Source of the DNA: an uncultured Planctomycetia bacterium | Lineage (GTDB): Bacteria; Omnitrophota; Gorgyraeia; Gorgyraeales; Gorgyraeaceae | Reading direction: 5' to 3' | Assembly (NCBI GenBank): GCA_964652265.1 | Contig: CAZZAL010000005.1 | Span: 1 to 57,124 of the forward strand | Length of the DNA stretch: 57,124 bases | Shown here: positions 3,747 to 4,393 of the stretch, in pieces | How positions within the stretch are numbered: position 1 is the stretch's first letter | How the letters are laid out: every line of letters starts with the position of its first letter | Translations under genes and position numbers: made by a program | The notes under the pieces: model-generated | Told to the model about the DNA's origin: nothing | The model's database searches: none | What the model saw: the letters and a program-made list of their open reading frames with translations, nothing else

Positions 3747-4393
3747 CTTACCGCACCGGATTGCTCCGGCCGCAAATACGTTGCGGTCTGGACTATGTCT
3801 TCACCGTTTCAGGTGTGCAGCGTATAGTCTCTGAGGACTCTCTACTTCATTAACAAATAGTTCTCAGCCCATTTTATCTTACGAGCTTGATTGTTAGAAG
3901 GTTTATCAAATCTCAAGGCTTTAGGGCAATTTTTCTTGTTTGACACATAGAGAACTTTGTCTTTATCTGGACAATATATCGCATAGTAATCAAATTCATT
4001 AGCTGAATAAGCTCTCGTATGAGTGCCTTTGCTGTCAGACCAATTTCTTCTGAATCTTAATTCAGCTGTCCCGTTTTTCTTTAATCTTGCATATTTTACT
4101 TGAAGCTTAAAAACATTACCTTTTTCAGATACAGCCACAAGATCATATGCTTGATGTTCAGATAAAGGAATACACGGAACATATCTTTTTGCTGTAAGAT
4201 CAGCGATGACTTTCACCAGTCCGATATCAGCTTTAGCCTTGGTATGATGCACTATACCTCCTCCCAATTTTTAAAGAACTACCTGCTAACTCAGTAGGTT
4301 GCCTGCAAATTGTCCATATATTAAAATATGGAGTTCCTTGCATATAGCTGCATCCACTCTATGTGTTTTTTTCCACATAGAGGCTCCTAATTG
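3747..4393 (-). mobile_element. group I intron (647 nt, bacterial tRNA-type, IC3-like) in the anticodon loop of tRNA-Arg(UCU)
   Basis: The exon base before the 5' splice site is U, and the last intron base is G. P1 is CUUc/ggag with a U-G pair at the splice site. P2 is CTCTATGTG-GAAAAAAA-CACATAGAG (4357-4382). P3 is GCAGC/GCTGC. The catalytic core is CAGAGACTATACGCTGCACACCTGAAACGGTGAAGACATAGTCCAG (classic R/S, P7-P3'-P8-P7'). The 3' hairpins are CCGCAA-CGTAT-TTGCGG and CCGGA-GCAA-TCCGG. Confidence 0.85.
3842..4267 (-). CDS. intron-encoded PD-(D/E)XK-type homing endonuclease (I-Ssp6803I-like)
   Basis: The 141-aa maximal ORF lies entirely inside the intron. Motif AYDLVAV...FKLQVKY fits D-x(n)-Q-x-K. 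The C-terminal RFDKPSNNQARKIKWAENYLL resembles that family. The ORF opens with TTG. An in-frame GTG at 4252 is preceded by GGGAGGAGG and is the likelier start (136 aa). The stop TAG abuts the P7 strand. Confidence 0.65.
   Translation of the reverse strand: MGGGIVHHTKAKADIGLVKVIADLTAKRYVPCIPLSEHQAYDLVAVSEKGNVFKLQVKYARLKKNGTAELRFRRNWSDSKGTHTRAYSANEFDYYAIYCPDKDKVLYVSNKKNCPKALRFDKPSNNQARKIKWAENYLLMK

Follow-up and report, generated by a model that had tools for sequence, protein, structure and literature searches.

A predicted I-Ssp6803I-family homing endonuclease housed in a group I intron of a bacterial tRNA-Arg(UCU) gene

A 57,124-nucleotide (nt) stretch of DNA from an uncultivated bacterium (contig CAZZAL010000005.1 of assembly GCA_964652265.1; hereafter the window) contains a tRNA-Arg(UCU) gene interrupted by a group I intron. 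Housed in the P6 extension of this intron is an open reading frame (ORF) whose 136-amino-acid (aa) product is, judging from sequence and predicted structure, a PD-(D/E)XK protein of the I-Ssp6803I family (PF11645). The combination likely constitutes an intron with its own homing endonuclease, propagated by the homing cycle set out below. The protein is an ordinary member of its family rather than one new in kind. The intron class has already been catalogued and the protein family already annotated, the window supplying a new member of both. The host is referred to as Omnitrophota-like according to the labels of the nearest loci.

With introns allowed, ARAGORN finds 647 nt of intron inserted where gcctt meets ctaag, which puts the break after U34, the U(-1) of the 5' splice site, and before C35. 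The exons called in this way (4428-4394 and 3746-3705) are exactly those given in a preliminary description of the window, which had been made from the sequence alone. Insertion after the third nucleotide of the anticodon loop corresponds to the class named 'Arg.3Ug' (Williams 2020 preprint, 10.1101/2020.01.27.920355). The split gene was missed by standard ARAGORN and by Rfam at its gathering threshold when the whole window was scanned. Run in intron mode on 80 related loci, ARAGORN frequently put the splice site in the wrong place and gave anticodons for Ser, Trp, SeC, Gly and others. These assignments were overruled, as the exon ends read CUGCCUU/CUAAGC (the slash marking the insertion site), and hence tRNA-Arg(UCU), in nearly all loci.

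The ribozyme was examined in the introns of 65 related loci, from which the ORF was removed, the two halves aligned and the pairs counted. Helices were placed by hand on RNAalifold output; both alignment and helices are our own and were partly fitted to the window sequence. Multiple compensatory pair types occur in P2, P3, P4, P8 and P9a, and a single P3 pair (51-189) is found as UA, CG, GU, GC or AU. P1 (CUUc/gGAG), P6 and P7 are nearly invariant: in P7, five of the six pairs form in every one of the 65 copies, four of them without any variation. The U(-1).G wobble in P1 is present in 63 copies and replaced by U-A in the other two, while in all 66 mapped copies a U precedes the 5' splice site and the last intron nucleotide is G. 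The insertion is a group I intron with covariation-supported ribozyme helices and is predicted to be self-splicing.

The ORF is situated between the P6a hairpin and the 3' strand of P6, and therefore in the P6 extension. A mechanical search delimits it at 3842..4267 on the minus strand, with a TTG start and 141 codons. However, where the window has the in-frame GTG 4252, the two closest relatives (L001 and L122-L125) carry ATG, and the match to Pfam sets in directly behind this codon; the true product is therefore taken to be the 136-aa form. The strong Shine-Dalgarno sequence that the preliminary description had placed before this codon is there, 4 nt ahead of it. The description of the ORF as the only one in the intron holds for ORFs of appreciable size, although four trivial ones of 30-36 aa also overlap the intron. 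Its stop codon had been said to abut P7; TAG 3844-3842 in fact precedes the 3' strand of P6 by 5 nt and the 5' strand of P7 by 12 nt, near but without contact. A ribosome terminating there would plausibly cover the P6 3' strand and P7, and translation of the ORF may influence ribozyme folding.

Most homologues are 152 aa long because their ORF reads on to a stop in the 3' strand of P7, whereas the window and a minority of copies end 16 codons earlier. In the longer forms (P0010, P0014, P0017 and others) the ORF runs through P7, P3' and P8, its UAG lying inside the P7 3' strand, and the ribozyme core, translated, makes up their conserved tail ESSETIRxTPEMVKT. In this region (window 3791-3841) the 136-aa forms, that of the window included, are in a different frame, and their ORF ends shortly ahead of the core. 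N-terminal extensions of the type VDAAICKE... in some database entries represent gene-caller read-through of the P3-P4 region. By direct reading, the ORF (3842-4252) has eight arginine codons, seven of which are AGA, the codon of the interrupted tRNA-Arg(UCU); if this is the sole such gene of the genome, translation of the endonuclease would need prior splicing of its own intron.

The preliminary description had recognized the product as an I-Ssp6803I-type PD-(D/E)XK enzyme, and both profile and structural comparison lead to the same family. Pfam reports PF11645 (PDDEXK_5) at 97.4 bits (cut-off 26.1; E=9.7e-28), over profile positions 1-137 of 138. At E<=10 it reports no other family, and none of the LAGLIDADG, GIY-YIG and HNH families, in keeping with the motifs noted as missing. 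No NCBIfam model matched the endonuclease, so the product name that NCBI gives to its homologues does not come from a model in that library. Among all sequences in the PDB, the only real match is 2OST (I-Ssp6803I), found at E=0.006 with the single sequence; a profile of 37 sequences lowers this to E=8.3e-6. From the 37-homologue alignment, AlphaFold gave a model (pLDDT 87.7, pTM 0.80) that retrieves chains A-D of 2OST as Foldseek ranks 1-4 (TM-score 0.76, E=2.3e-9); the next ranks go to SPARDA DREN domains and archaeal Hjc resolvases, as expected for the fold.

Residues D9, D37, Q51 and K53 are invariant in the 37 homologues (60-98% identity), and their catalytic assignment follows from alignment to the 2OST chain. 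D37, Q51 and K53 align with I-Ssp6803I, in line with the D...Q-x-K core proposed earlier. The strings quoted in support of that core and of a C-terminal match (AYDLVAV, FKLQVKY and LRFDKPSNNQARKIKWAENYLL) are all present in the mechanical ORF. The 13 residues said to separate the first two are the spacing from D37 to Q51; the strings themselves are only 6 residues apart.

A word-indexed protein search returned 238 proteins at E<=0.001, of which the best 120 all score 8e-54 or better. Among the matches listed, several bear the NCBI name 'group I intron-associated PD-(D/E)XK endonuclease' (73%-identical ones among them), and these are mostly from Candidatus Omnitrophota, Elusimicrobia and Endomicrobiales. 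In a scan of one genome per species, at least 509 loci held relatives, and 80 of them were kept. For 66 of these 80, mapping of the exon ends showed tRNA-Arg(UCU) to be split where it is in the window, at CUGCCUU/CUAAGC; they include copies of 40-45% identity from members of the Bacteroidota, Gammaproteobacteria, Chloroflexi and Ignavibacteria. When 1.84 billion cluster representatives were searched exhaustively with a profile, 3,161 clusters (50% identity) were returned at E<=0.001, 731 of them at E<=1e-10.

Close homologues of I-Ssp6803I were placed mainly in cyanobacteria by a 2012 review (PMC3384342), and a superfamily survey of the same year described a small, patchy family with a handful of sequences (PMC3424549). 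The numbers of clusters and of species-level genomes (at least 509) mean that the class, introduced in the preliminary description as rare, is so only among characterised enzymes. I-Ssp6803I is the sole characterised enzyme of PF11645; the present data reveal a large family, for which tRNA-Arg(UCU) is a well-supported second class of target. Some taxonomic labels in the sample are at odds with the tree. The copy at L080, labelled as a Halobacteria archaeon, is a bacterial-type tRNA-Arg(UCU) intron with endonuclease that groups with gammaproteobacterial copies and probably reflects mis-binning of the contig or a wrong label. Several TPA metagenome-assembled genomes (MAGs) labelled 'Planctomycetia' or Planctomycetales (L001, L003, L004 and others) group with Omnitrophota copies.

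The ORF is under purifying selection and, as the preliminary description had demanded of it, is conserved in the homologous introns, 66 copies of which occupy this position in tRNA-Arg(UCU). The median ratio of nonsynonymous to synonymous substitution rates (dN/dS) is 0.13 over 128 pairs, and in-frame stops are found in only 2 of 78 copies (L013 and L022). In these two (ORF start 1501), the stops follow 33 and 50 codons, and tblastn aligns the full length; they give the impression of endonuclease genes in decay within introns that are otherwise intact.

Comparison with L001 suggests that the element has recently moved between divergent bacteria. Nucleotide identity between the window and L001 is 98.6% in the 5' part of the intron, 96.6% in the endonuclease ORF (dN/dS 0.185 at a synonymous divergence, dS, of 0.10) and 98.9% in the 3' core, while the flanking Ham1 gene, DUF748 gene and tRNA-His are only 71%, 65% and 73% identical. 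Where alignable, the gene order of L001 is that of the window: Ham1, tRNA-Pro, tRNA-Arg, DUF748 gene, tRNA-His. An assembly chimera was considered for L001 and judged unlikely, since its intron is a third, distinct allele, set apart from the window by 18 differences and from the L122 type by 19, and the exons in common measure only 35 and 42 nt. In the closer relative L122-L125, host genes are about 92% identical and the intron 98-99% identical. The element thus appears to be mobile, and its near-identity across divergent hosts suggests ongoing homing in uncultivated marine bacteria.

Empty sites exist as well and, next to selection and transfer, form a third independent line of evidence for an active and mobile element. 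BLAST and ARAGORN show locus L098 to be syntenic with the window (host genes 68-75% identical, SpoU methylase 79% amino-acid identity) and to have an identical but uninterrupted tRNA-Arg(UCU). A 67-nt pattern made from the joined exons of the window, with one position free, located uninterrupted tRNA-Arg(UCU) on 41 metagenome contigs. Contigs of two DNA metagenomes (X8 and X17) join 3745/3746 to 4393/4395, skipping 647-648 nt. These joints are intronless tRNA-Arg genes of the same communities, in which the exons are too conserved for assignment to the species of the window. Other contigs from X8 and X17 follow the 3' core to 3843 and pick up the match again at 4335; they probably derive from a related intron with another, possibly ORF-less, middle. 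As to expression, one 221-nt metatranscriptome contig matches 3880-4100 perfectly, which is weak evidence of transcription; no spliced or junction reads were found in four metatranscriptome runs.

The DNA of the uninterrupted site (GGATAGAGCATCTGCCTT/CTAAGCAGAGGGTC) has its best symmetry centre at C35, with 9 of 17 positions complementary, and includes the pseudo-palindrome TCTGC-N7-GCAGA. I-Ssp6803I acts as a symmetric tetramer on a pseudo-palindromic site (PMC3384342; SPARDA preprint), and the target in tRNA-Arg(UCU) would suit a symmetric oligomer of this kind. In the 43 closest hosts, GGA, AGAGCA, CTGCCTT/CTAAGC and one G further into the 3' exon are invariant. The outermost pair of the anticodon stem varies among them, and further stem pairs covary in more distant hosts, implying that the enzymes must tolerate or track those changes. 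TCTGC, ACTGC, CCTGC and CCGGC are natural variants of the stem met with in hosts.

These features can be assembled into a homing cycle. The pre-tRNA would be transcribed, probably jointly with the upstream tRNA-Pro, and the ORF translated from GTG 4252 behind its strong Shine-Dalgarno sequence. The ribozyme is expected to fold into P1-P9 and to splice between U34 and C35, restoring the tRNA. By analogy with I-Ssp6803I, the protein may bind as a tetramer to uninterrupted tRNA-Arg(UCU) DNA at the pseudo-palindrome centred on C35, and cut near the insertion site through D9, D37, Q51 and K53 with one metal ion. Repair from the intron-bearing allele would then copy intron and ORF into the empty site. 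In this scheme the cutting of DNA, the place of the cuts and the assembly into a tetramer are proposals for the window protein.

Several observations weigh against this interpretation. In a permissive Rfam scan, Intron_gpI scored no more than 24.1 and 20.4 bits, its gathering score being 50, and it gave no match at E<=0.001 in the ORF-less relatives L015 and L048. The Rfam seed contains no bacterial introns (Williams preprint, 10.1101/2020.01.27.920355) and the window intron is split by an ORF, so the shortfall is ascribed to low sensitivity of the model and not counted as contrary evidence; for this reason the covariation analysis was relied upon. Identity to I-Ssp6803I is only about 20-22% in Foldseek alignments, and sequence alignments end at residue ~100, leaving the C-terminal third unaligned. 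The C-terminal likeness asserted earlier consequently stands at the level of Pfam profile and predicted fold but not in pairwise sequence alignment. The comparison with L001 concerns one MAG contig from a co-assembly, and much of the spread of the intron among Omnitrophota-like genomes could be vertical. Finally, the window copy has GTG where its relatives have ATG and lacks the 16-codon tail of most homologues, and it may be expressed at a lower level or be less active.

Purifying selection across the clade and occupancy of the same site in many Omnitrophota-like genomes would also fit long vertical residence, during which the protein could have been domesticated, retained for a host or intron function (maturase-like help in folding, or another DNA transaction) and no longer driving mobility. 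Selection on free-standing relatives beside intact tRNA-Arg(UCU) genes (L062/L077 dN/dS 0.10) points in the same direction. Such domestication is nevertheless improbable for the window copy. All four nuclease residues are invariant, although a maturase would not need them, and the intron of the window resembles that of L001 far more closely than the flanks resemble each other. We know of no maturase activity for this fold.

Just as improbable is a copy in decay, in which a genuine family member has become inactive or unexpressed in this genome, as happens late in the life cycle of homing endonucleases. The GTG start and the early end of the ORF might be read as signs of it, and L013 and L022 have already acquired in-frame stops. 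Yet the window ORF is intact behind a strong Shine-Dalgarno sequence and its catalytic residues are preserved. The 136-aa form is common to many homologues and spans the whole Pfam domain, and the dN/dS value against L001, from a copy that is about 96% identical, is that of a gene under constraint. A restriction-like or defence nuclease without a role in homing, caught by chance between the tRNA halves, is effectively refuted by the genomic context, since, although the fold is common to SPARDA DREN domains, Hjc and restriction enzymes and an AbiE toxin-antitoxin cassette adjoins, the ORF sits within covariation-supported ribozyme helices at a fixed tRNA site in 66 genomes, its best match in both structure and sequence is I-Ssp6803I, itself a homing enzyme, and the AbiE cassette is a separate insertion with its own 93-nt repeats, absent from close relatives. 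An active intron-borne homing endonuclease thus remains the preferred account of the locus, whose features are listed in Table 1.

Table 1. Features of the interrupted tRNA-Arg(UCU) gene, its intron and the intron-borne ORF (window positions).
Feature	Positions	Strand	Basis or remark
Split tRNA-Arg(UCU) gene	3705..4428	-	ARAGORN with intron option; mature tRNA 77 nt including CCA
5' exon, end ...CUGCCUU	4394..4428	-	ARAGORN and exon-end mapping
Group I intron, 647 nt, class 'Arg.3Ug'	3747..4393	-	ARAGORN and covariation; omega-G at 3747
3' exon, starts CUAAGCAG, including CCA	3705..3746	-	ARAGORN and exon-end mapping
5' ribozyme half	4279..4396	-	Hand-placed helices, 65 aligned copies
P1	4396-4393/4387-4384	-	Invariant
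P2	4382-4374/4365-4357	-	Many compensatory changes
P3 5' strand	4352-4347	-	Many compensatory changes
P3 3' strand	3821-3816	-	Many compensatory changes
P4	4342-4337/4309-4304	-	Many compensatory changes
P5	4331-4326/4319-4314	-	Poorly supported by alignment
P6 5' strand	4303-4302	-	Invariant, GG/CC
P6 3' strand	3836-3835	-	Invariant, GG/CC
P6a hairpin	4297-4279	-	Poorly supported by alignment
Shine-Dalgarno sequence GGGAGGAGG	4257..4265	-	Direct reading; 4 nt before GTG 4252-4250
Predicted homing endonuclease ORF, 136 aa, GTG start	3842..4252	-	Pfam, 2OST alignment, fold, ATG in relatives
D9 codon	4226..4228	-	Invariant acidic residue, helix 1; aligns with D of I-Ssp6803I 'KGDIA'
D37 codon, 'PD' aspartate	4142..4144	-	YDLV in window protein and I-Ssp6803I
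Q51-V52-K53 codons, '(D/E)XK' element as QVK	4094..4102	-	QVK identical in I-Ssp6803I
3' ribozyme core	3747..3836	-	65 aligned copies
P7	3829-3824/3796-3791	-	Almost invariant, GACUAU/AUAGUC
P8	3815-3812/3805-3802	-	Covaries
P9	3786-3770	-	Weakly supported by alignment
P9a	3769-3756	-	Covaries

The interrupted gene belongs to an array of tRNA-Pro(UGG), tRNA-Arg(UCU), a DUF748-like gene and tRNA-His(GUG) at 2677-4529, which is kept in the relatives L098 and L123. In most of the loci examined, tRNA-Pro stands beside tRNA-Arg(UCU), whether the intron is present or absent. Upstream, a perfect 93-nt direct repeat (4477-4569 and 6375-6467), made up of the 5' 53 nt of tRNA-Pro and 40 nt upstream of it, brackets an AbiEi/AbiEii pair (type IV toxin-antitoxin; cassette 4593-6243). 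In the close relatives L122 and L123, Ham1 directly adjoins tRNA-Pro and the cassette is absent; the AbiE cassette is therefore a recent insertion with target duplication.

Members of PF11645 are also found outside introns. Homologues of about 40% identity in Actinomycetota, Chloroflexi and Natronospirales MAGs (L058, 1501-2009; L062; L072, 1371-2001; L074; L077; L078) stand free, 20-40 nt ahead of a tRNA-Arg(UCU) gene that is intact, and form a clade of their own, which is under the purifying selection mentioned above. At L072 the order is tRNA-Pro, ORF, tRNA-Arg, tRNA-His, and at L078 the tRNA gene is downstream on the opposite strand. The tRNA adjacent to the L058 gene carries the canonical target sequence, which raises the question of how the host avoids cleaving itself. 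Two further loci combine a free-standing gene with an ORF-less intron: at L015 (1203-1908) the intron is about 200 nt long and the endonuclease gene 25 nt further, whereas at L048 (1501-2273) the endonuclease gene is about 55 nt upstream of a tRNA-Arg(UCU) gene with a 249-nt intron. In the tree, L015 is nested among intron-borne copies.

A tentative reading, for which the odds are rather unfavourable, is that the tRNA-Arg(UCU) locus preserves in living genomes all stages by which an endonuclease becomes the passenger of an intron. The stages would possibly run from a free-standing gene beside an intact tRNA, through a free-standing gene beside an ORF-less intron (L015, L048), to the P6-embedded form of the window, and the window-type intron might still be moving between divergent marine Omnitrophota-like hosts. 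If true, this would offer a bacterial chromosomal test bed for the pathway in which an endonuclease invades an intron, and for the question of how a tetrameric enzyme with the restriction fold came to be redirected from tRNA-fMet to tRNA-Arg.

Close counterparts of the window protein are the NCBI-named proteins of Candidatus Omnitrophota MAGs (P0005, P0030, P0061 and P0105, among others), which are 60-78% identical to it and all belong to PF11645; most are 152 aa in length, in contrast to 136 aa here. The classical tRNA introns of subgroup IC3 (Azoarcus tRNA-Ile, Anabaena tRNA-Leu and Agrobacterium tRNA-Arg(CCU)) share with the window intron the general helix order P1-P9 but are ORF-less, and to our knowledge none of them is mobile. 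The J6/7-P7 sequence (AGAGACUA...) is presumably common to the window intron and that of Azoarcus tRNA-Ile. The Agrobacterium intron differs from the window intron in isoacceptor and in position (Arg.5Ug).

A catalogued counterpart of the intron comes from the work of Williams (2020 preprint, 10.1101/2020.01.27.920355), which raised the number of tRNA intron types from 4 to 21 and whose seed alignment holds 'Rba190.Arg.3Ug'. This sequence shares with the window intron the insertion position, U(-1) and omega-G, and P1 (CUUC / GGAG). Unlike the window intron, the Arg.3Ug seed sequences were chosen short and ORF-less, and in the parts of the text consulted the class is not linked to PD-(D/E)XK endonucleases (10.1101/2020.01.27.920355). 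Free-standing endonucleases directed at the insertion sites of introns are known from collaborative homing in phage T4 (mobE/I-TevIII; PMC2790892) and in a cyanophage (F-CphI; PMC6083498). The PF11645 relatives at L015 and L048, free-standing beside a tRNA-Arg(UCU) gene with an ORF-less intron, resemble this arrangement, although the known cases are from phages and involve other nuclease families, and the window copy is embedded in its intron.

I-Ssp6803I itself, encoded in the tRNA-fMet intron of Synechocystis (PDB 2OST), agrees with the window protein in family (PF11645), in fold and in the D...D...QVK residues, and is of similar size (151 residues in the 2OST chain). In both systems the ORF lies inside a group I intron of a tRNA anticodon loop, the target being pseudo-palindromic anticodon stem-loop DNA (PMC3384342). 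They differ in host gene (tRNA-fMet as opposed to tRNA-Arg(UCU)), in insertion point (fMet.2Ug, after loop nucleotide 2, as opposed to Arg.3Ug, after nucleotide 3) and in host, a cyanobacterium in one case and an Omnitrophota-like uncultivated bacterium in the other; the window protein is known from sequence and model. From a practical standpoint, the small nucleases of this family, with long recognition sites and naturally shifted specificity, could, by comparison with I-Ssp6803I, show how the fold reads DNA.

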